A DNA stretch of 44,190 nt from Parcubacteria group bacterium. GTDB lineage: Bacteria; Patescibacteriota; Minisyncoccia; UBA6257; UBA11618. Below are positions 1-39,924 of this stretch, one piece after another; within the stretch, counting starts at the first letter, position 1, and each line of letters starts with the position of its first letter. The notes under the pieces were generated by a model, which was given only the letters and a program-made list of their open reading frames with translations, did not search any database and was not told the DNA's origin. The position numbers and the translations under genes are program-made. Location: positions 1 to 44,190 of the forward strand of contig CALRGO010000004.1 in assembly GCA_943357895.1 (NCBI GenBank), given 5' to 3'.

Positions 1-180
1 AGCGAAACGGGCGCCTACGGGTATGCGGAGCTCGTGCCGACGCTCATGAAGCGGAAGATTACGATAAGTAATTCAACGGATGGTGAAAAGATATCCGTCG
101 GGTCGCGCGTTAATTGGATAACCCGCGGCGGGGGAAAATTCGACATTAATTTAGAAAGTCATGTATTCCACTGGAGATAA
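1..180 (+). CDS. 3' end of an ORF that starts upstream of the window; product unknown, lies directly upstream of a pilin-like gene
   Basis: Frame 1 is open from base 1 to TAA at 178-180 (...SRVNWITRGGGKFDINLESHVFHWR*). No recognisable motif. Confidence 0.3.
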   Translation, partial: SETGAYGYAELVPTLMKRKITISNSTDGEKISVGSRVNWITRGGGKFDINLESHVFHWR

Positions 181-181
181 T

Positions 182-655
182 ATGAAAAGTCAGCAAGGAT
201 TTACAATCATAGAATTGATGGTGGCGATGAGCTTATTCGTCATTGTGGTGGGCATTACTTCCGGCACGTTTGTACGGTCGCTCCGCACCCAGCGGCAATT
301 GGTCGCCCTAATGGCCGCGAACGACAATGCGAGTCAGACGTTAGAGCAGATGACGCGCGAAATCCGCACGGGTATGGCCTTTGCGGTAAGCGGCAGCAGG
401 CTGTCGTTTACGAACGCCACGGACGAGCGCGTGGTGTACGATCTTACGGGTAACCGTATTGAGCGCAACGGCAAGGCCCTTACGGCGTCGAACGTATTTG
501 TTAAATACCTTCGGTTTTCCGTGCGCGGGGCGGAGGTGGGGGACGGCATATCCACCCGCGTAACGGTCTTTTTGGGTGTAAGTGCGAAAGGGAAAATGGA
601 GTCGTTCGTCACGCGTCTGCAGACGACGGTCGCTTCGCGCGTACTTGATGGCTGA
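182..655 (+). CDS. Type IV pilin-like / pseudopilin protein with prepilin N-terminal cleavage-methylation motif
   Basis: MKSQQGFTIIELMVAMSLFVIVVG shows the G|FT.IE motif followed by a hydrophobic helix. GGAGA lies 4 nt upstream of ATG 182, so the ORF-track start at 161 is less likely. This is the only CDS in the window ending in TGA (653-655). Confidence 0.8.
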   Translation: MKSQQGFTIIELMVAMSLFVIVVGITSGTFVRSLRTQRQLVALMAANDNASQTLEQMTREIRTGMAFAVSGSRLSFTNATDERVVYDLTGNRIERNGKALTASNVFVKYLRFSVRGAEVGDGISTRVTVFLGVSAKGKMESFVTRLQTTVASRVLDG

Positions 656-8297: not shown

Positions 8298-9308
8298 ATG
8301 AAAAAACTATCCATCGGTATCGTGGGGCTGCCTAACGTCGGTAAGTCGACGCTTTTTAAGCTACTTACGAAGCAGGATGTGAACATCGCTAACTATCCAT
8401 TTTGCACTATCGACCCGAATATTGGCATCGTTTCCGTTCCGGATAGCCGACTTACTGATCTCGCGGAGCTTTCGGAATCTAAAAAAATAGTCCCTGCTAT
8501 TGTTGAATTTTATGATATTGCGGGGCTCGTTAAGGGGGCGGCAAGCGGCGAAGGGCTCGGTAACCAGTTCCTTTCGCATATACGCGAAACGAACGCCGTT
8601 GTTATGGTGCTTCGCTGTTTTGGCGGCACGGAGATTACCCACGTAGAAAATTCCGTGGACCCCTTGCGCGATATGGGTATTATCAACGCCGAGCTCGCGC
8701 TGAAGGATTTGGAGACGGTCGAGAGGCGCATAGTTTCTCTCGGCGCCGAAGCGCGCGGCGGCAAAAAAGAAGCCGTAGTCGCGTTGCCGATAATGGAAAA
8801 GATAAAAACCGCCCTTATGGAGGGCGGATCGATTTATGAATATGCGGACGAGCCCGAAGTACGTTCGTTGCAGCTCCTAACCATGAAGCGGCAAATATGC
8901 CTATTAAATGGCACCACAGACGATGTGCCGGAAGATTTAAAAGCTGAGTTAGCTCAAAAAGGAATCGCTTATGTGGTGGCAAATGTTAGTGATGAGGCGG
9001 GCGCGAAAGATGCCTTAGCTTCGATGATACGCGAAGCCTACACAACGCTTAATTTAATAAGCTTCTTTACGACAGGGGAGGAAGAAACACGTGCATGGAC
9101 TATTCGCCGCGGGGCGAAGGCGCCGGAGGCTGCCGGAACGATCCATGGCGACTTTGAAAACAAGTTTATCCGTGCCGAAACAGTTTCTACGGAAGCCTTA
9201 CTCGAAGCGGGGAGTTGGTCGCAAGCAAAAGCGAAGGGTAAAATGCGATTAGAGGGGAAGGAGTATGTAGTCGCAGACGGCGACGTGATGGTTATACGGC
9301 ACGGCTAG
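8298..9308 (+). CDS. ychF: Ribosome-binding ATPase YchF (Obg-family GTPase/ATPase)
   Basis: It has the P-loop GIVGLPNVGKSTLF, NYPFCTIDPN, and a C-terminal TGS-like FFTTGEEETRAWTIRRGAKAPEAAGTIHGDFE. Confidence 0.9.
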   Translation: MKKLSIGIVGLPNVGKSTLFKLLTKQDVNIANYPFCTIDPNIGIVSVPDSRLTDLAELSESKKIVPAIVEFYDIAGLVKGAASGEGLGNQFLSHIRETNAVVMVLRCFGGTEITHVENSVDPLRDMGIINAELALKDLETVERRIVSLGAEARGGKKEAVVALPIMEKIKTALMEGGSIYEYADEPEVRSLQLLTMKRQICLLNGTTDDVPEDLKAELAQKGIAYVVANVSDEAGAKDALASMIREAYTTLNLISFFTTGEEETRAWTIRRGAKAPEAAGTIHGDFENKFIRAETVSTEALLEAGSWSQAKAKGKMRLEGKEYVVADGDVMVIRHG

Positions 9309-11113
9309 TTAGCACAAAGGTCGTCATCATTACGGCATGCCTCGAATGCGTCGATCATTCTTTTTATTTTTAAGCCGTTTTGTAGCTCTTTTTCTATATC
9401 GCGGGTTACCGTTGTGCGGACAATGCCCGTTTCAATGCCTTGCTCGCGAATCCCTTTTAATTTATTAACAATTTTTGTGAGTAGTGTGGCGACGCGCTGA
9501 GATAAGTAGGTGGCTTCCGGCTCTACGGCTTTTACTGCGAGTATCTCTACAGGATCCACTTTTTCTTCTATTATTTTTGGCTCCGGTTCGGTTTCTAGGG
9601 TGAAATTATTTACCCATAATGCGTCGCCTGATATACGAGCCTCATCTATTTTTCCATTAAAGAAGGCGTCTCCTCCTCCGAGCTTTTCAGCTCCACTGAT
9701 ACTCACAGAAGCATTTTTATTAGCAATGCCTTTTGTGTATGCTTTTTTCCCTACTATAATGCCATTTTGAAATACGTACATGGAGGATCCATCATAAACT
9801 CCTGCTACGTGCACCCACGTATTAGATGGTATTGCTGTATCTCCGATTATACTCGTTTCTATTTGTGCGGCATCAGATAGATGTAATGTGAGATGGTTTG
9901 CTTCGTTGATAGTAAGAGCATATGAGCGATTATCTCCCGCCTCGTTCCATTTAGTTATAATTCCTTCTTGTGCAGTTGTGGGTGCTGTGCGATATATCCA
10001 TGCGTCTATAGTGAGAGGCCCAGTAATTCCTAAATTAATTTGTTCGTTGTCGTTAATAAAACGCTTACTATTTCCATTAAATTGAAGAGCTGTATTAAAT
10101 TTACCAGTTACGCTATAAACCGGCGTACCTTTTACTTGTGTTAAGTGGTTACGATTTTCTGATGAATCGATACTAGTGCCCATTGATTCATCGAGATGCC
10201 ACACCCCTCGTAATTTTTCTTTAGGAAGTAAGTCAAAGAGTTTTTCTTCAAGGCTTACGATTTTCGTGCCGTGTTGCGGGTTCCATTTTGCGGCGGCATC
10301 TATGGTCGTCCATGGCATAGGTTCGGCAAGCCACGAGGGGCTTGCTTTTTGGTCTGTCGTAAGGTCGTTGTAGGCAGCCATGATATCCATAATGTCTTTC
10401 AGGCGCTTTGCCGCACCGTCTTTCAGGGGGTTTAAGTAGTCCTCAAGCGACTGCTCTTTGCTTTGGGCGGGTACGTCTTCGAGCGCTTGGTAGAGCATGC
10501 CGATATCTTCTTGCCGTACCGCAGTATCGTTTGTAATGAGGTTGGCAATAAGAGATAGGTCGTTATTACTGCTGTATTTGCCGTTCGTCGCTAAGTACGC
10601 GTAGGTGCAGGCGTTATTGGCATATATACGGATGTTATTATACCAGCCGTATTTTCTGACCGTTTCCCCGTAGCCGGATTTTTCTACGTGCGCGAGGCAT
10701 TGGGATTCGATACGCTGTGCTAATTGCTCGTTCGCGCTTACGCCTCCTATGGCGGCTACGCCACCGGATGATCCGCTACCGGAAGATGGAATAATGCATG
10801 ATGTCCCGTTCCATCCGTATCCCATCTGCGCACACGTTTCTGCGGTGCATGATCCGTTTGGGCAGGTAGTGGACAGTGGCGTGCATGATTGAGTGGTGCT
10901 ATTCCATGTACCACCTTGAGAATTACAAAGCATGGCTTGATATTCGTCACAGGTCATATTGCCCATCATGCACGCTTGAGCAAGATTCGGGTTCGTTCCT
11001 TGCATCATCCTTTGCTTTTGCATTAAGGTATTGCGCGGTTGGATGACGACGACGAGTAAAACAGCAACGGTTGCCGCGAGTAATAACAAATATGAAATGG
11101 CGCGTTCGGTCAT
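9305..11113 (-). CDS. Membrane-anchored surface protein with a Cys-rich N-region and a LamG-like (concanavalin A-like lectin) jelly-roll domain
   Basis: 602 aa with an N-terminal TM helix and a Cys-rich stretch (CMMGNMTCDEY...CPNGSCTAETC). The LamG pattern reads LTIDAWIY...YALTINEANHLTLHLSD...NTWVHVAGVYDGSSMYVFQNG...FFNGKIDEARISGDAL. TAGAAT lies 6 nt upstream of the ATG. Confidence 0.7.
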   Translation of the reverse strand: MTERAISYLLLLAATVAVLLVVVIQPRNTLMQKQRMMQGTNPNLAQACMMGNMTCDEYQAMLCNSQGGTWNSTTQSCTPLSTTCPNGSCTAETCAQMGYGWNGTSCIIPSSGSGSSGGVAAIGGVSANEQLAQRIESQCLAHVEKSGYGETVRKYGWYNNIRIYANNACTYAYLATNGKYSSNNDLSLIANLITNDTAVRQEDIGMLYQALEDVPAQSKEQSLEDYLNPLKDGAAKRLKDIMDIMAAYNDLTTDQKASPSWLAEPMPWTTIDAAAKWNPQHGTKIVSLEEKLFDLLPKEKLRGVWHLDESMGTSIDSSENRNHLTQVKGTPVYSVTGKFNTALQFNGNSKRFINDNEQINLGITGPLTIDAWIYRTAPTTAQEGIITKWNEAGDNRSYALTINEANHLTLHLSDAAQIETSIIGDTAIPSNTWVHVAGVYDGSSMYVFQNGIIVGKKAYTKGIANKNASVSISGAEKLGGGDAFFNGKIDEARISGDALWVNNFTLETEPEPKIIEEKVDPVEILAVKAVEPEATYLSQRVATLLTKIVNKLKGIREQGIETGIVRTTVTRDIEKELQNGLKIKRMIDAFEACRNDDDLCAN

Positions 11114-11150
11114 AGGGTTATTCTACTATGGATGACACCGTGCGCGGAAG

Positions 11151-11912
11151 TTAATAACTTATCTTCCTGAGCCAGTAATCGTTTTCCCATTCCCATAATT
11201 TCTTCGCGCCCAAAAAAGCGGCGAAATCGTCTTTCCAATACGGGAATTCTTTAAGTTCTACGTGGCCGGTTACGGGGCCGAAGTCATGGGTACCTTCTTT
11301 GCACCTCTGATAGCCCATGGGCCGAGGGTAGGGGTCGCGGATTTTATCGCGGCCGCCCTTGCCGCGCAAGGTTGAGCCGCATTTCGTGCACGTTGCGCTT
11401 TGGTCTATGCGCATGATCCAGCGCGTCTGTAAGTTTTGCGCGCGGAGCGTATCCATATAAGCGGCGGTTTGCAGGTTGTAGTCGCGGTAGATGGAAAGCG
11501 ATGTTTTAATGTCCAAGATGCCGAACTTGCCGCCGATTAAGGCGAGGGTATCGATAGTGCCCGCATAGCGGTGCTCGTAATTAACCACGCGCCGTTCTAC
11601 AAAGGCGGGGTCAACGTAAATTTTATTCGTTTTGATAAATTCTACGGCCGCGTTTATGGCGGGAGCGATAGATGCGTCTATGGGGGGATTTTGTCCTATG
11701 AGTATTGCCTCGAACGCTTCGTGTATGAGCGTGCCCTCGCTTGCGGACTTGGCTTTTATTTCTTCGCCTTCTTCAAAGCCGACTTCAGCGTAGAACTTGT
11801 AGAGTTGAGGCTTTGCCTTTATCTCCATGATTTTCGTCACACGCGGATACCACGTGCCGTCTATCATGTAGCCACAATCCTCTTTAAATTTTTCCACATT
11901 TTCGTAGCGCAT
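11151..11912 (-). CDS. PD-(D/E)XK (RecB/Cas4-like fold) nuclease family protein with a Zn-ribbon-like insert
   Basis: Motifs seen are GTLIHEAFE, YAGTIDTLA...GILDIKTS (D..D-x-K) and LQTAAY (QxxxY). An inserted CTKCGS...CKEGTH segment is present. Confidence 0.6.
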   Translation of the reverse strand: MRYENVEKFKEDCGYMIDGTWYPRVTKIMEIKAKPQLYKFYAEVGFEEGEEIKAKSASEGTLIHEAFEAILIGQNPPIDASIAPAINAAVEFIKTNKIYVDPAFVERRVVNYEHRYAGTIDTLALIGGKFGILDIKTSLSIYRDYNLQTAAYMDTLRAQNLQTRWIMRIDQSATCTKCGSTLRGKGGRDKIRDPYPRPMGYQRCKEGTHDFGPVTGHVELKEFPYWKDDFAAFLGAKKLWEWENDYWLRKISY

Positions 11913-11989
11913 ATATGTATACAGCCTATCATTATCGTGCAGGGGAGGGGAGTATTGCTATTTTATCTTTTTTAAAGCATATTCACGGT

Positions 11990-13102
11990 ATGAAAAAACA
12001 CTCTTACGTAACGGATATTGCTCTTGTGGTAGGGCTTTTAGTTTTTATCGCGGCGCCGAGTTTCGCCGTAACTATGCCGAATATAGGCGCGGCGGCGGGA
12101 TACGCGATCCTCGACAGCGCAACGGCTAACACGCAGGCGAAGGCAGACGCGCAAAACGCCTATAACCAGATTTTGGCTATGGCATGCACGAAAGACATGA
12201 CCGACGTCAATCTTAATAACCAAATTCTTACCGCTGGTGTTTATTGCTTCGGTACGCCGACGTTCTTGCAGGGTCAAGTGCTTTTCGACGCGAAGGGCGA
12301 TACGAACGCCGTATTCGTGATGAAGATGGCGAGCCGCTTCGACGCATGGCCGGATTCCACTGTTGTGCTTTTAAACGGTGCGCAACCCCAAAATATTTTT
12401 TGGCTCGCGGGTGGTGCGGCAACGCTTGGCACGTCGGTTAATTTTGCGGGTACGGTAATCACCATGGCGCCGATTGCGTTCGGTCGCGGGGGAGACGCGC
12501 CAGTATTCGATGAGCACGGCATGGTAAACGGCCGGTTGTGGTCGGTGGGGAATACGGTAACAGTACCGAGTCGCGTAACAGTCGGCTTTATGGCTCCGGT
12601 CGGTAATGCGTATGTTGTTCCGCAGGCGACTCAGCCGCAGTATATAGCACCACAGCAACCGACAGGCGCCTTACTTTCGGTGATAGTCAACGAGCCCGGC
12701 GTCATTCCGTTTGTAAACGGAACGCGTGTCGTAAGCGGCATGAAGACGCCGTTTGCCGCAGGTACGTACACGGTAAGCGAAATCAACACTTCGGGGACGG
12801 ATTACGGCACACCAACGTTCTCGGGTAGCTGTACGCAAAACGGCCTTACGGGTACTATCACTCTCAACGCAGGGGATGATAAGGTGTGCGTTATAAACAA
12901 TACGCCGGTTGCGGTGTGGTCAGCGCCTGCTATTGCTGCTGCATGTAAGGGGAGTGCCTGCAGGCCTACAATGCCTAATACGGGCCGCAGTGCCGGTACG
13001 GCCTTCGGTGATCTCTATATACCGACACTTAATATGATCGGGCTTATACTCGTCCTCGGATTCGTATGGAACGAAGCTTCGTCCGGAAGGCGCTCCTCGT
13101 AA
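11990..13102 (+). CDS. Cell-surface ice-binding-like (DUF3494) protein with a C-terminal sortase sorting signal (MPNTG + TM + basic tail)
   Basis: The signal peptide MKKHSYVTDIALVVGLLVFIAAPSFA starts at ATG 11990. The DUF3494-like core reads LTAGVYCFGTP...LFDAKGDTNAVFVMKM...NGAQPQNIFWLAGGAATLGTSVNFAGTVI. The C-terminus reads PTMPNTGRSAG...LILVLGFVWNEASSGRRSS. Confidence 0.7.
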   Translation: MKKHSYVTDIALVVGLLVFIAAPSFAVTMPNIGAAAGYAILDSATANTQAKADAQNAYNQILAMACTKDMTDVNLNNQILTAGVYCFGTPTFLQGQVLFDAKGDTNAVFVMKMASRFDAWPDSTVVLLNGAQPQNIFWLAGGAATLGTSVNFAGTVITMAPIAFGRGGDAPVFDEHGMVNGRLWSVGNTVTVPSRVTVGFMAPVGNAYVVPQATQPQYIAPQQPTGALLSVIVNEPGVIPFVNGTRVVSGMKTPFAAGTYTVSEINTSGTDYGTPTFSGSCTQNGLTGTITLNAGDDKVCVINNTPVAVWSAPAIAAACKGSACRPTMPNTGRSAGTAFGDLYIPTLNMIGLILVLGFVWNEASSGRRSS

Positions 13103-13641
13103 GCGCGGTAGGATATATTGCAATTGCTGCTTTCGTTTTTTGGAACGAGGGGGGGTTAACCGCTTCCTCCCCTGCCGTTTTTTTGAAAACCGAGCGAGGG
13201 GAGGGTGGGTGGCTTTTAATACCTAAGATTGGTGTGGATGCGAAAATACAGACGGTCGGTACGACGCCATCCGGATCCATCGGTATACCGTCGAACGCTA
13301 AGGACGTTGCGTGGTTCGCCGGGTCTTCGCCTATAGCCACGGCCGGTACGGCCGTCGTGGTGGGGCATGTGGATACCCGCGTATTCGGTGCCGGCGTATT
13401 TCGGGGTCTAAAGGGGTTAGCTAAGGGGGATGTTATATATACGTCCATAGATGGTCGTATAAGCCGTTTTACGGTGACGGGGTATGCGGTGTATCCAGAG
13501 GGCACAGACCGCATGGACGAGGTTATAGGCACGCGAACAGGGAGTGCACGGCTTGTGCTTATTACCTGCGACGGTAGGTGGGATCAGTCTGTTAAGAGAT
13601 ACACCGACCGCTTAGTGGTATTTGCCGATAGAGAAGCTTAG
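13066..13641 (+). CDS. Sortase (class E/F-like transpeptidase)
   Basis: It has an N-terminal TM helix, LLIPKIGVDA, a catalytic His (VVVGHVD), a catalytic Cys in LVLITCDG, and Arg in YTDRLVVFA. It overlaps the 3' end of its putative substrate gene by 37 nt. Confidence 0.8.
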   Translation: MERSFVRKALLVSAVGYIAIAAFVFWNEGGLTASSPAVFLKTERGEGGWLLIPKIGVDAKIQTVGTTPSGSIGIPSNAKDVAWFAGSSPIATAGTAVVVGHVDTRVFGAGVFRGLKGLAKGDVIYTSIDGRISRFTVTGYAVYPEGTDRMDEVIGTRTGSARLVLITCDGRWDQSVKRYTDRLVVFADREA

Positions 13642-24285: not shown

Positions 24286-24333
24286 TAGCACGGTGGTAAA
24301 ATGGGTGAAAATATGGCAGGATAATCACGATAT

Positions 24334-24404
24334 TGCCGGGTCGTCTAATGGTCGGACAGCGGACTTTGAATCCGTCAATCTAGGTTCGATTCCTAGCCTG
24401 GCAA
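24334..24404 (+). tRNA. tRNA-Gln (anticodon UUG)
   Basis: Hand-folded cloverleaf: acceptor TGCCGGG/CCTGGCA, anticodon stem GCGGA/TCCGT with loop CTTTGAA, T-arm CTAGG-TTCGATT-CCTAG. 71 nt, no encoded CCA. Confidence 0.9.
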
Positions 24405-24415
24405 CAAATATAAAT

Positions 24416-24841
24416 ATGGAAAAAATAGCGCGGATCGGTATTGGGGTTTTTGTATTCAGAGACGGGAAATTTTTAATGGGCAAACGGATGGGGTCTCATG
24501 GTGAGGGTAGTTGGTCTGTGCCGGGTGGTCATTTGGAATTTGGCGAATCGTTTGCGGAAACTGCTCGTCGAGAGGTTTTAGAAGAAACCGGAATTACAAT
24601 AAAGAATATTAAATTCGGTGCGGTTACTAACGATTATTTTGAAAAAGAAGGTAGGCATTACGTAACTGTTTGGATGGTTACGGAGCACGATGAGGGCGAA
24701 GCGAAAATAATGGAGCCTGATAAGTTTATCGAGCAGGGCTGGTTTGATTTTACTACTCTACCATCGCCGTTATTTTTGCCATGGACGCAGTTATTACAGT
24801 CTGAATTCATAGAAAATATTAAAAGTTTTTCAAAAAAATAA
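24416..24841 (+). CDS. NUDIX hydrolase
   Basis: The Nudix box GGHLEFGESFAETARREVLEETGI is present. Start taken at ATG 24416, because the track ORF start at 24293 reads through the tRNA. Confidence 0.85.
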   Translation: MEKIARIGIGVFVFRDGKFLMGKRMGSHGEGSWSVPGGHLEFGESFAETARREVLEETGITIKNIKFGAVTNDYFEKEGRHYVTVWMVTEHDEGEAKIMEPDKFIEQGWFDFTTLPSPLFLPWTQLLQSEFIENIKSFSKK

Positions 24842-26699: not shown

Positions 26700-26705
26700 T
26701 ATAAT

Positions 26706-26744
26706 AAAAAATCCCCTAGGGCGTGCGCCTTAGGGGATTTTTTA
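26706..26744. terminator. Bidirectional terminator hairpin (pepF on + and rnpB on -)
   Basis: AAAAATCCCCTAGGGC...GCCTTAGGGGATTTTT forms a long stem flanked by A- and T-runs. Confidence 0.7.
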
Positions 26745-26749
26745 TGTGG

Positions 26750-27075
26750 CACGAAGGTATGCGATAAGCCGAATTCTGTTACGTCTTGCGACGCATAACG
26801 ACCATTTGTCTAAGCGGCACTCCGTATGCTTGCGCATACGGCACGGCCTTGCACCCGAGTAAGGATTTAGCCGTTTCATCTTAGCCTTCAACTGCTAAGC
26901 ACATCCGCATTGCTGCGGATGCCGCAGCTCTTTCGGGCTGTGGCGTTTCTGTTCGCACCTCTCCGTTACCGGTGACGGCTTTTCAACCGCTACTTGTTTA
27001 TACGTGCCTTACGGCGCATATGAGTGTCCGGACTTTCCTCCCCTTACGGAGCGGTCGTCTGGCATACCTCCGTAC
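26750..27075 (-). ncRNA. rnpB: RNase P RNA (bacterial type A-like)
   Basis: The minus strand contains GGAGGAAAGUCCGGAC (P4 5' strand/CR-I) and ACAGAAUUCGGCUUAUC (P4 3' strand/CR-V). A P1 helix pairs CGGAGGUAUGC (27072-27062) with GCAUACCUUCG (26762-26752). GUGCGAACAGAAACGCC and CUUAGACAAAUGGUCG are also present. There is no credible ORF, and ends are approximate. Confidence 0.9.
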
Positions 27076-27082
27076 CGAATCT

Positions 27083-27111
27083 ATAATGACACTAAATTTA
27101 GCGATTGTCGA
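27083..27111 (-). promoter_or_regulatory. Putative promoter of rnpB (TCGACA-N17-CATTAT)
   Basis: On the minus strand, -35 is TCGACA (27111-27106) and -10 is CATTAT (27088-27083). The predicted start near 27076 matches the beginning of the P1 helix. It lies inside the 3' end of rnhA. Confidence 0.4.
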
Positions 27112-28410: not shown

Positions 28411-29373
28411 TTATTTTTCGAGGGCTGAGATACCGGGGAGTTTTTCGCCGCTTAAAAAAGCGAGCATGGCGCCGCCGCCGGTTGAAACCCAGTCGAATTT
28501 TTTTATCAGGCCCTCCTTCTGCAAGAAGTCGGCAGTGTCTCCCCCGCCCGCTACGGAGAAGGCTTTGCTTTTTATAATCGCGGCCGCGAGTGCCTGCGAG
28601 CCTTTGGCGTATTTCGCGTTTTCCGCTTTGCCTACCGGCCCGCTCCAGACTACCGTCTTTGCCTTGGCGATTACTTTTTCGTATTCCTCCGTCGTTTTTA
28701 CGCCAATATCTTGCCACGCGTTGCCGCCTATGCCGTCTTTCGCAAATACAATATCTGCATGGCGAGGCAGGGCTTCGGGCGACATGCGGTATGCGCTGCC
28801 TAAGAGGAACTTCGTGCCGGCGTTTTCGAACTTTTGGATGACGCCGATTTTATCTTCTATCTTTATACCGCCTAAAATCACGACGCGCGGGTAGTCGGGG
28901 TTGTCGCGTACGTGTGAAAGGTTCTTAATTTCTTCTTCCAAATGCAGGCCGGCGTACGAGGGCAGGAATTCCGTGATGGCGACCATAGAGGCGGCTTTGC
29001 GGTGGCTTGTCGCGAAGTCATCGTTAATATAGATATCTGCGCCTTGCGCGAGCTCTTTGGCGAACGCGACGTTGTTTGCCTCCTCGCGCGGGTCGAAACG
29101 CAGGTTTTCGCGCCACTCGACGGCTTGTCCCAGTTCTTTTTCTATCAGGCTCACGGCGCGCTTAAGAGAAAGCGCCGCATCTTCCCCCTTCGGCCGGCCG
29201 CGATGGCTTATGATGACGGGTTTCGCGCCATACTTGAATAAGAAGCGGAGTGTGGGGAGCGTTGCTTGTAAGCGCAAAGAATCCCGCGAGGGATCCTTTA
29301 TGTCGAGGTTTACGCGCACGAGGCACGTCTTTCCCCGCAACTTCGGTTCAGTTAGCGTGCGGAGCAGGCGCAC
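28411..29373 (-). CDS. pgk: Phosphoglycerate kinase (short form, 320 aa)
   Basis: Motifs seen are GKTCLVRVNLD, ISHRGRPKG, AGGGDTADF and the C-terminal STGGGAMLAFLSGEKLPG. Confidence 0.85.
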   Translation of the reverse strand: MRLLRTLTEPKLRGKTCLVRVNLDIKDPSRDSLRLQATLPTLRFLFKYGAKPVIISHRGRPKGEDAALSLKRAVSLIEKELGQAVEWRENLRFDPREEANNVAFAKELAQGADIYINDDFATSHRKAASMVAITEFLPSYAGLHLEEEIKNLSHVRDNPDYPRVVILGGIKIEDKIGVIQKFENAGTKFLLGSAYRMSPEALPRHADIVFAKDGIGGNAWQDIGVKTTEEYEKVIAKAKTVVWSGPVGKAENAKYAKGSQALAAAIIKSKAFSVAGGGDTADFLQKEGLIKKFDWVSTGGGAMLAFLSGEKLPGISALEK

Positions 29374-37417: not shown

Positions 37418-37565
37418 TTACCATGATTAAAGCTGAAGGAGGTTAGGTGTGGCAAGGGCTGTGGAGAACTTGCTATGCGCTTATAAGCTATTTTTGGTAT
37501 GCTATAAATGCATTGGTATAAATTAACAAAGGTCGCGATGCGTGAATAATCAGTATTGTAAATAT

Positions 37566-37886
37566 ATGAATTCTAAGCAAATAGGTCATTGGGTATTTTC
37601 CCTCGGCCTCGTGCTCGCGGTTGTCAGTCCTTTTGTCTTTATTCCTTATACCGGAATAATTTTATTTATTCTCGGTATTATTATCGGATACGTTAATATC
37701 AAGGGAAATGAAGGTCATTCATTTTTACTCGCGGTGATTGCGCTCGTCGTTATTGGGGTTGGTAGTATCCAGCTATTGGCGTTAACTTCGCCGGTTGTGG
37801 CGATACTCACGAATATTATCGCTTTAGCATCCCCTGCGGCGTTAGTAGTTGCGGTTAAGCAAATACTCACCACTAGTAAGGCGTAA
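37566..37886 (+). CDS. Small integral membrane protein (3-4 TM), hypothetical
   Basis: Hydrophobic throughout. ATG 37566 is preferred over the GTG at 37542 used by the ORF track. Confidence 0.5.
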   Translation: MNSKQIGHWVFSLGLVLAVVSPFVFIPYTGIILFILGIIIGYVNIKGNEGHSFLLAVIALVVIGVGSIQLLALTSPVVAILTNIIALASPAALVVAVKQILTTSKA

Positions 37887-37911
37887 GTACGGATACGAAG
37901 CGTAGTAAATG

Positions 37912-37959
37912 AAAAGAGTTCTCCGGAGGTATATCCTCAACGAGAACTCTTTTCTTTTC
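37912..37959 (+). terminator. Rho-independent terminator
   Basis: A 12-bp stem pairs AAAAGAGTTCTC with GAGAACTCTTTT, with an inner stem, followed by TCTTTTC. Confidence 0.7.
37945..37959 (+). repeat. 15-nt direct repeat AACTCTTTTCTTTTC, left copy
   Basis: Identical 15-mer at 38255-38269. The two copies bracket the tRNA-Gln(CUG) unit. Confidence 0.9.
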
Positions 37960-37967
37960 CGCATATA

Positions 37968-37996
37968 TTGATTAAAAGGCGTATTTATTGCATTAT
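37968..37996 (+). promoter_or_regulatory. Putative promoter of tRNA-Gln(CUG): TTGATT-N17-CATTAT
   Basis: Hexamers lie at 37968-37973 and 37991-37996, 15 nt upstream of the tRNA 5' end. Confidence 0.4.
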
Positions 37997-38011
37997 TATG
38001 AGCGTAATTAC

Positions 38012-38082
38012 TGCCGGATCATCTAGTGGTAGGATAGCGGACTCTGAATCCGTTCACCTTGGTTCGAATCCAAGTCCGGCAA
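38012..38082 (+). tRNA. tRNA-Gln (anticodon CUG)
   Basis: Acceptor TGCCGGA/TCCGGCA, anticodon stem GCGGA/TCCGT with loop CTCTGAA, T-arm CTTGG-TTCGAAT-CCAAG. 71 nt. Confidence 0.9.
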
Positions 38083-38100
38083 CTAAGTTTTTCATTATAA

Positions 38101-38253
38101 TGCCGGACTTGGATTCGAACCGAAAAGGGGGTCGGGGAAAAAGTTTAAGGTTTTCCCCGTGTAGGAAATTAGGCCTTTTTAGGCCGTGAGAAACCGAGGG
38201 TTTCTCAGGAGGAGGTTATTAAACCGACGACGTTCGGCTGCCAGTCCGGCAAC
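38101..38253. other. Structured element built from tRNA-Gln end sequences (candidate ncRNA or insertion scar)
   Basis: 38101-38121 is the exact reverse complement of tRNA positions 38061-38081. AGTCCGGCAAC at 38243-38253 repeats 38073-38083. A 9-bp closing stem pairs 38101-38109 with 38243-38251. Internal hairpins lie at 38133-38159, 38172-38185 and 38187-38207, followed by AGGAGGAGG at 38207-38215. Confidence 0.5.
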
Positions 38254-38254
38254 A

Positions 38255-38269
38255 AACTCTTTTCTTTTC
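38255..38269 (+). repeat. 15-nt direct repeat AACTCTTTTCTTTTC, right copy
   Basis: Identical to 37945-37959. Confidence 0.9.
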
Positions 38270-38482
38270 TTAAATACTCGTTAAATAAAGCCACTCCACT
38301 TTCTCCCGTGCCCATGGGGTTTTGCGCAAAAAGACGAGGCTGGACTGTATGCTCGGATCTTTTGTAAAACAGTTGATTGTGATGCGGCGACCGAGCTCCT
38401 CCCAGCCGTAGCGTTCTACTAAAAATTCCAATATCGCTTTAAGCGTTTTTCCGTGGAGCGGGTTATTAGGATGCTCGTTCAA
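38270..38482 (-). CDS. DUF2132 (VF530-like) small protein
   Basis: [56 protein letters not shown] matches my memory of the DUF2132 consensus. Confidence 0.6.
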
Positions 38483-38495
38483 TTGTATGCTGTTA

Positions 38496-38858
38496 CTATG
38501 CGAGTGTAATCACTAACGCCATTACGTAAAGCGATACGAAGCTTTCCGCGGCGTTGAAGGCGAATAATTTGAAGGACTTGCCTTCCCAGAGCCAGCTGCC
38601 GGCTTGGATTGGCATTACAAAGCCAAGCCATGGCCAGAACGCGAGCGTGAGTGCGAGCGTCCCCTGCGGCGCGATTTGCGATAAAACGAATGTCATTGCT
38701 TGTCATGGGGTAAGAGGTATGCTTCTCATATCTTTATCGGTAAATTTCATCATTCTGCGTCACGCTTTGCCGAATACCGGCCCGTACCATAACGCCCCCA
38801 CGGCTACGTTTGCGACTGCCGCCCCGATAACCGCCCAGTAATTTATTGTTATTTGCAT
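38496..38858 (-). pseudogene. DUF1761-like membrane protein interrupted by two in-frame TGA codons (pseudogene or TGA read as sense)
   Basis: A single frame reads MQITINYWAVIGAAVANVAVGALWYGPVFGKA-TGA-RRMMKFTDKDMRSIPLTP-TGA-QAMTFVLSQ...VITLA-TAG. The TGAs lie at 38762-38760 and 38705-38703, and there is no frameshift. Confidence 0.5.
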
Positions 38859-38872
38859 GAGGTAGGTATAGC

Positions 38873-39646
38873 TTATTTTTTATTTTCTTCCGGTTTTTTC
38901 GTAGGGAATTCTATGAGGATGGGGCTTTTCCATTTTGAATCTAAGTCGAACGGCGGCGCCGTAGTCCGTTCGAAATTTCCTGCAAAATCTCCGGGGAAAA
39001 TGCCGTCGGGATATATGTAAAAAGTGGATGGCTTGCTTTGGAGTGGCGGTATGAAGGGCACTCTTTTGCCTCGCGCATCAGTGGTTATTTGATATACAGG
39101 TCCTACGATATCGGCTATGGCGCAAGCAACTAATTTGGAACAAAAATATGCTTGGTCTGGTGTGGGCGGCACGGGACTTATTTTTGGTGTATCGGCTGCG
39201 AGGAGGAGAGTATTTTTTTCGTCATATGGCTTCCCTACTTGTCCTTCAAGAAATGCGGTAAGGGTGGCACTTTGTTTGATATTAAGTGGTGGCCATTTTT
39301 GGCGTATGAGTATAGTATCCGGATCGGTTTCGAGGTACGAAGGGTTTTCTGCAAGAACGCCTTTTTTAGCAACGGTGGGGCTGCCACTACGTGTGCTGTT
39401 ACCTTTGTCGCCAATCGCATGATACATTTTTAATACGCCCTTTTTATTGTATGCAAATATGCCTACATGGGTGATCGGGCTGCCGGTCATTTGTTTATAA
39501 AATTTTTGACGATCCGTGTCGTCAGCTTTAAAAAATACCAAGTCTCCCGGTTGGGGGGTGTATAGTTTTGGCAGAAGTTGAGCATACGTTGGCGCATATA
39601 CGCATAATGCGCTAATCATGAGTGCGATGAATAAGAACTTCTTCAC
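38873..39646 (-). CDS. Secreted YiiX/YaeF-like permuted papain-fold amidase (peptidase C92-like)
   Basis: It has a signal peptide, PGDLVFF, ITHVGIF, GKPYD and AYFCSKLVACA, with His before Cys as in the permuted arrangement. The start codon is GTG. Confidence 0.6.
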   Translation of the reverse strand: MKKFLFIALMISALCVYAPTYAQLLPKLYTPQPGDLVFFKADDTDRQKFYKQMTGSPITHVGIFAYNKKGVLKMYHAIGDKGNSTRSGSPTVAKKGVLAENPSYLETDPDTILIRQKWPPLNIKQSATLTAFLEGQVGKPYDEKNTLLLAADTPKISPVPPTPDQAYFCSKLVACAIADIVGPVYQITTDARGKRVPFIPPLQSKPSTFYIYPDGIFPGDFAGNFERTTAPPFDLDSKWKSPILIEFPTKKPEENKK

Positions 39647-39653
39647 GCTTATA

Positions 39654-39684
39654 AGTATACCACCGATATTTTTCGTGGTATACT
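39654..39684. promoter_or_regulatory. 10-bp inverted repeat carrying two back-to-back extended -10 elements (TGgTATACT on each strand)
   Basis: AGTATACCAC (39654-39663) pairs with GTGGTATACT (39675-39684). The minus-strand copy lies 7 nt upstream of GTG 39646, and the plus-strand copy lies 6 nt upstream of ATG 39691. Confidence 0.5.
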
Positions 39685-39690
39685 AAGCCG

Positions 39691-39801
39691 ATGGAAAAGC
39701 GGCGGTCGTTCATATTGCAATATGTCCAACCCGGTTTATTGGGGTTGATGGGGTATACGCCAAATGGTATTCGTCGCGTTGGCCCCGAGCCGCATAATTA
39801 G
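39691..39801 (+). CDS. Possible 36-aa ORF (MEKRRSFILQYVQPGLLGLMGYTPNGIRRVGPEPHN), perhaps a gene remnant
   Basis: Only the promoter geometry supports it. It is not in the ORF track because it is too short. Confidence 0.2.
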   Translation: MEKRRSFILQYVQPGLLGLMGYTPNGIRRVGPEPHN

Positions 39802-39924
39802 GGTGTAATGGCATGGGTATTTTACTGTCTATTTTTGGCGGAGACCGTATTGCAAAAATTGTGAGCGGCGAGGTGGTACCGCCATCGATATTCGACGTTC
39901 CCGCGGCGCATTAAAAATTTCAGC

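Follow-up and report, generated by a model that had tools for sequence, protein, structure and literature searches.

Two in-frame TGA codons in a DUF1761 gene of a Parcubacteria genome: very probably a recent pseudogene under the standard code

Background

One described system with which the locus discussed here may be compared is family JAKLIH01 (order UBA6257, class Minisyncoccia), in which UGA is reassigned to Trp, with 0% UGA stops, 82-88% UAA stops and no RF2 (PMC13092985). Each JAKLIH01 genome carries 150-303 supporting Pfam columns, and standard-code relatives of the family have 3.9-27% UGA stops (PMC13092985, Suppl. Table 2); none of the assemblies used in the present analysis is in that table. 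The UGA to Gly code (code 25) of Gracilibacteria and Absconditabacteria likewise belongs to the Patescibacteria phylum and likewise gives genes with in-frame TGA. DUF1761 (PF08570) is a family of small four-helix membrane proteins of unknown function, for which a literature search gave nothing beyond incidental mentions in unrelated studies.

We discuss a DUF1761 frame in a stretch of 44,190 nucleotides (positions 1 to 44,190 of contig CALRGO010000004.1, assembly GCA_943357895.1), the whole of which we refer to as the window. The locus resembles JAKLIH01 (translation table 4) in belonging to the same class, in TAA-dominated stops with almost no TGA among them, and in having in-frame TGA facing Trp. 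However it differs in that the window has 162 other Trp codons free of TGA and one TGA stop at a conserved C-terminus, and in that relatives have RF2. In the case of code 25 the difference is that the TGA columns are Trp and not Gly, and that the window has no further in-frame TGA. The frame shares with the DUF1761 family a full-length profile match, the WYGPVFGK-W and LWEGK motifs and a genomic neighbourhood of the orthologue type, but unlike functional members it is broken twice and has half of helix 2 deleted, and is best seen as a remnant. It is most like an ordinary bacterial pseudogene of an accessory gene, with multiple independent disabling lesions that match the mutation bias of the lineage, orthologues that are intact in the same neighbourhood of relatives, and a further relative in which the gene is missing. 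It differs from the usual pseudogene in that every lesion keeps the frame, which gives it the misleading look of a recoded gene. We conclude that it is very probably a recently inactivated DUF1761 gene in a standard-code Patescibacteria genome (Paceibacteria/Minisyncoccia, 'Parcubacteria'), that is, an ordinary pseudogene.

The DUF1761 reading frame

38496..38858, minus strand: putative DUF1761 (PF08570) pseudogene, 120 codons including two TGA, then TAG

The frame runs from ATG at 38858 to TAG at 38498-38496, with TAA directly after the TAG, and translates as MQITINYWAVIGAAVANVAVGALWYGPVFGKA (TGA) RRMMKFTDKDMRSIPLTP (TGA) QAMTFVLSQ...VITLA (terminal stop). The coordinates, strand and description given in an earlier sequence-only reading (a reverse-strand translation of 120 sense-or-TGA codons with a TAG end) are correct, and its assignment to DUF1761 is borne out by an end-to-end match to the PF08570 profile. 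With W placed at both TGAs the match covers positions 1-123 of 123 at 68.4 bits (E 8.7e-19), the Pfam cut-off (gathering score) for this family being 31 bits, and it is far beyond chance. Gene callers split 38496..38858 into short ORFs, one of 32 aa and one of 66 aa.

In a database search the DUF1761 product had 113 homologues, the best of which have 70-79% identity (BLASTP) and a length of 128-131 aa; over aligned positions the window product has 76-85% identity to the top homologues. The product was aligned with 29 of these proteins to give a set of 30 sequences (alignment A1). The closest intact orthologue, used as reference, is in L013 (JGI 3300079876), which encodes protein P0001, and its DNA aligns with the window gene at 85% mean column identity. 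Intact orthologues have 126-131 aa, whereas the window gene has neither an uninterrupted frame in the range of about 126-145 aa nor the set of four hydrophobic segments.

The lesions and their ancestral states

38760..38762, minus strand: nonsense lesion 1, TGA as codon 33, after ...LWYGPVFGKA
38703..38705, minus strand: nonsense lesion 2, TGA as codon 52, after ...IPLTP
38688..38699, minus strand: junction of a net 30-nt in-frame deletion, after codon 54/55, exact breakpoints ambiguous
38718..38720, minus strand: codon 47, ATA (Ile), which is Met (ATG) in at least 90% of homologues

Of the 29 homologues at least 90% have Trp opposite codon 33 (...FGK-x-W-R/M...), and the codon is TGG in L013 and in three other relatives, L007, L005 and L004. 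The residue that the sequence-only reading had taken to be a conserved Trp is thus indeed near-invariant. Codon 52 is in a variable column, with Trp in the closest homologues (P0001, P0007, P0010, P0018 and P0038) and Ala, Gly, Met, Thr, Ile, Leu or Pro in the remainder; the codon is TGG in L013 and GCG (Ala) in L007, L005 and L004. The proposal to look at the residues opposite both TGAs gives Trp in nearly all of the family in the first case, and only among the closest relatives in the second. As L013 has TGG at both sites, both TGAs are third-position G>A transitions of Trp codons.

The sequence-only reading described the frame as interrupted only by TGA. Both TGAs stand, but the net 30-nt in-frame gap and the Ile at codon 47 had been missed; the further statement that there is no frameshift holds, all of the lesions being in frame. 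The gap removes 10 codons whose residues are present in 29/29 aligned homologues, and changes QAM-AGGVVTALV(T/M)-AFVLSQIA to QAMTFVLSQIA. About 10 residues are lost (AGGVVTALV and one more), among them a near-invariant Gly and Leu, and they form the N-terminal half of predicted transmembrane helix 2. In a Kyte-Doolittle scan of 17 residues P0001 has four hydrophobic segments, with a TM2 peak of 1.96, whereas the window product has three and reaches at most 1.2 in the TM2 region. Because of the deletion, a read-through product would be short of half a transmembrane helix even if complete. Starting from the L013 sequence, the gap could have arisen through a single event of 30 nt together with substitutions, or through two events of 15 nt each between GT(G/C)ACGGCG repeats. 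The change at codon 47 is a third G>A within 60 nt, and codons 33-53 of the window gene alone have four G>A changes.

Three independent assemblies (GCA_943354225.1, ERZ27280297 and ERZ27265269) have the identical allele. The corresponding sequences, L001 from GCA_943354225.1 (of one species with the window) and the ENA contigs L002 and L003 from other samples, all have both TGAs and the deletion, and L003 differs from the window gene by one synonymous SNP. L002 is a 701-nt contig in which the first 30 nt or so (L002:1-32) encode a different DUF1761 N-terminus (ITINYWKVI), with identity to the window thereafter; this suggests that the sample has a second variant, or that the end of the contig is chimeric.

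We regard as negligible the probability that the TGAs are sequencing or assembly errors, selenocysteine codons, or Gly codons under code 25; nothing apart from the in-frame TGAs speaks for any of these. Error is ruled out, as the allele recurs in three other assemblies from different samples. Selenocysteine is rejected since Trp, Ala and other residues, but not Cys, align with the TGAs, and there is no SECIS-like hairpin. Gly, which the sequence-only reading had offered as one option, fits neither TGA column, being present at codon 52 in 3/29 homologues and at codon 33 in none.

Use of TGA in the window

We used as gene set the 43 other non-overlapping ORFs of at least 100 aa in the window, which amount to 13,068 codons. 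They include 162 TGG codons and no in-frame TGA, in comparison with six TGG and two TGA in the DUF1761 frame. The difference in TGA at Trp codons (2/8 against 0/162) has a Fisher's exact p of 0.0019. Two Trp codons picked at random would land in any single gene with a probability of 0.03, and the upper 95% bound on the TGA share of Trp codons outside DUF1761 is 1.8%. When ORFs were re-called with TAA and TAG as sole stops, DUF1761 was the only genuine gene to be lengthened. Under the standard code 89% of the bases of the window are coding.

Among the same 43 genes TAA is the stop in 38 (88%), TAG in four and TGA in one, the 95% CI for the fraction ended by TGA being 0.06-12%. Such stop usage is extreme for a sequence of 49% GC, and is similar in the closest relatives, L006 and L007 (TGA 1/20). 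The remaining TGA-ending ORFs of the window overlap real genes or a tRNA, leaving one credible case.

161..655, plus strand: pilin-like gene with N-terminal methylation motif, the only credible TGA-terminated gene in the window

The TGA of this gene is at 653-655, where the product ends ...LQTTVASRVLDG, and this is the conserved C-terminus of the family: aligned ends of other members are ...LQTTVSARTLDS, ...SSRQLDT and ...SSRILEG, each followed by a stop. In an exhaustive search most of the 150 best homologues align up to query residues 160-164 (of 164), the alignment stopping within about 2 residues of the homologue C-terminus, and more than 100 homologues end where the TGA ends the window gene. 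Read-through would add seven residues before a TAG. As the gene ends at the conserved C-terminus of its family, TGA serves as a stop here, the conserved-end test being one on a single gene, 161..655.

These data bear on the possibility that the organism reads UGA as Trp, whether completely or in an early 'codon-capture' state reached after near-loss of TGA stops, with DUF1761 translated full length. Such a reading would account for both TGAs facing Trp or TGG in the nearest orthologue, for the lack of a rise in non-synonymous changes discussed below, and for a genome segment in which TAA ends 88% of genes and TGA ends 1/43, and there is the documented reassignment in family JAKLIH01 of the same class (PMC13092985). 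However no Trp codon in the 43 other genes is TGA, both TGAs cluster in a single gene that also bears a helix-destroying deletion, and the pilin-like gene has its TGA at the C-terminus of its family. The 95% CI of the TGA stop fraction overlaps the 3.9-10% of standard-code relatives, and each JAKLIH01 genome has 150-303 supporting Pfam columns. Family-level relatives, moreover, have RF2 and TGA stops. We therefore think reassignment very unlikely, and leave it a small residual probability, for an early or partial form, because the stop usage resembles that of JAKLIH01.

The proposed check for other genes with in-frame TGA thus found none at 162 Trp codons in the 43 other genes of the window, and the suggestion that UGA is decoded as Trp or is leaky finds no support in these Trp codons or in the TGA stop of 161..655. 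The only tRNAs in the window are tRNA-Gln(UUG) and tRNA-Gln(CUG).

Release factor 2 in relatives

In relatives TGA is the stop in from 1/14 to 5/22 of the sampled genes. Their release factor is of RF2 type, keeps the SPF and GGQ motifs and is encoded between tRNA-Thr(CGU) and ftsE-ftsX. This evidence on RF2 is drawn from relatives, prfB and tRNA-Trp of the organism itself being outside the window; by synteny with L005 its prfB should be about 2 kb past the right end of the window. The RF2 candidates P0252, P0140, P0144 and P0136 all belong to other organisms, in which the neighbouring genes differ. The partial protein at the right end of the window had no exact match on record; its best match by homology was of 77% identity, and a scan of JGI metagenomes with it gave no relatives.

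The RF2 of the clade is short, at only about 238-243 aa, in all five loci (L005:2301-3017, L011:2037-2756, L012:1724-2440, L014:10001-10720 and L015:10001-10732), and aligns to residues 122-361 of E. coli RF2 with SPF and GGQ kept. It is without domain 1, and hence without the usual +1 frameshift site. As tRNA-Thr(CGU) is immediately upstream in 5/5 loci there is no hidden N-terminal RF2 exon. Nearly all of the top 120 database matches for this RF2 are of the short form.

A short RF2 has to be considered in relation to a second possibility, namely that the code is standard but UGA is leaky enough to give a little full-length, partly functional protein, through near-cognate reading by tRNA-Trp(CCA) and perhaps with a contribution from the short RF2. 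UGA-C is the leakiest context in E. coli, and C follows TGA at both stops; the loss of domain 1 from RF2 of relatives and the presence of the allele in several samples also point in this direction. However the UGA-C context was inherited from ancestral W-R and W-Q codon pairs, two read-throughs in series would give a very small yield, and the product would have half of TM2 missing. Nor is there any stimulatory structure after either stop: the 66-nt stretch from each TGA has no folding advantage over shuffled sequence (z = -0.14 and +1.44). We regard functional leakiness as very unlikely.

Neighbourhood of the locus

38873..39646, minus strand: Peptidase_C92-like protein (weak match), the upstream neighbour and synteny anchor
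38012..38083, plus strand: tRNA-Gln(CUG), a neighbour of the DUF1761 locus that is conserved in relatives, not a UGA suppressor

Among named genomes the nearest are all Patescibacteria: 'Candidatus Harrisonbacteria' nzgw435, with 89% identity for the neighbouring nucleotidyltransferase, a Kaiserbacteria-like MAG, and other Paceibacteria. None of the relatives from a GTDB scan exceeded 89% identity. An intact DUF1761 gene is directly downstream of the C92-like gene in L007 and L005, and in L004 it is about 3.5 kb from that gene in the same broader neighbourhood. This broader neighbourhood includes tRNA-Gln(CUG) and the genes for a 147-aa protein, SodA, Fmt, Def, S41 protease and L9. Compared with intact orthologues in a shared neighbourhood the window gene thus has disabling lesions, as expected of a pseudogene.

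L015, a more distant syntenic relative, keeps the C92-like gene and the SodA-Fmt-Def block but has no DUF1761, and we take the gene to be dispensable in the group because L015 does without it. After the C92-like gene, where DUF1761 would be, L015 has an N6-adenine methyltransferase/Eco57I-like gene (L015:14390-16746), and the presence of a different gene there indicates that the locus is variable. In the window the segment between the 147-aa protein and DUF1761 (37542-38482) includes a 114-aa ORF without Pfam match and a gene for a VF530 (PF09905) DNA-binding protein (38270-38482, minus strand); L007 has neither at the matching site and retains only tRNA-Gln(CUG).

Age of the loss

Substitutions in the DUF1761 gene of the window and of L013 were polarised with L007, L005 and L004 as three outgroups. 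The window lineage has 27 changes, 16 synonymous and 11 non-synonymous, and the intact L013 lineage has 26, 16 synonymous and 10 non-synonymous. Non-synonymous changes are thus not in excess in the window lineage as compared to its intact sister (11 and 10), and give no evidence of relaxed selection. These counts would fit a very recent loss but are not diagnostic of it; taken alone they would also allow continued function. GC>AT changes account for 20 of the 27 in the window lineage, ten of them being G>A, and the window has a lower GC content of 49%. Given this bias, TGG>TGA is the expected kind of mutation.

Dead genes are usually deleted quickly in streamlined CPR genomes, and the pseudogene is therefore probably young. 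The proposal in the sequence-only reading of two TGG>TGA transitions in a very recent pseudogene is supported by the TGG codons in L013, by the near-invariant Trp at codon 33 and by substitution counts that give no sign of long decay.

Our interpretation is that third-position G>A changes turned Trp codons 33 and 52 (TGG) into TGA stops, and that a net 30-nt in-frame deletion took half of transmembrane helix 2. Translation would then end after 32 residues, if as we infer these TGAs are sites of termination in vivo, and a full read-through product would have three hydrophobic segments instead of four. The lesions are in line with the GC>AT bias of the lineage, in a gene that appears to be dispensable in the clade. 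The two TGG>TGA changes, the deletion and the TGG ancestry of both stops are observed, as are the presence of the allele in several assemblies, the absence of other in-frame TGA in the window and the one TGA stop at a conserved C-terminus; from these we infer that DUF1761 function has been lost.

Other genes of the window

The housekeeping genes of the window include those for a class II (Asp/Lys/Asn-type) aminoacyl-tRNA synthetase, seryl-tRNA synthetase and a class I Glu/Gln-type synthetase. There are also genes for alanine racemase, a P-type ATPase, YchF, MurG, FtsW, an MraY-like glycosyl transferase, a DnaX-like clamp-loader subunit (DNA polymerase III gamma/tau), phosphoglycerate kinase (PGK), ribosomal protein L9, S41 protease, Def, Fmt and SodA. 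The phosphoglycerate kinase (28411-29373) is only 320 aa long, and its match to the Pfam profile of 379 positions falls into three stretches; it may be a compact CPR version or have a mis-set start. For the NUDIX ORF (24293-24841) the mechanical GTG start overlaps tRNA-Gln(UUG) at 24334-24405, and the true start is therefore downstream of 24405. A likely surface-protein cluster is present at 9305-13641, with a 602-aa Laminin_G_3 protein, a 395-aa ice-binding-like protein and a sortase. Neither of two ORF-free segments, 26700-27097 (398 nt) and 39647-39924 (278 nt), has an Rfam match.

Implications and annotation

It is conceivable, with a chance that we put as low as that of reassignment itself, that the lineage is an intermediate in UGA codon capture, in which TGA stops have been almost purged, UGA is partly Trp, and drift from TGG to TGA is tolerated in a dispensable gene. 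If that were true, UGA to Trp would have arisen a second time in Patescibacteriota, separately from JAKLIH01, or the lineage would show the transitional state itself.

An ordinary recent pseudogene is by far the more probable reading, and the value of this case is mainly as a caution that in-frame TGA at Trp positions of a TAA-rich CPR genome mimics recoding. We suggest that in annotation 38496..38858 be treated as one pseudogene under translation table 11, and not as two short ORFs.
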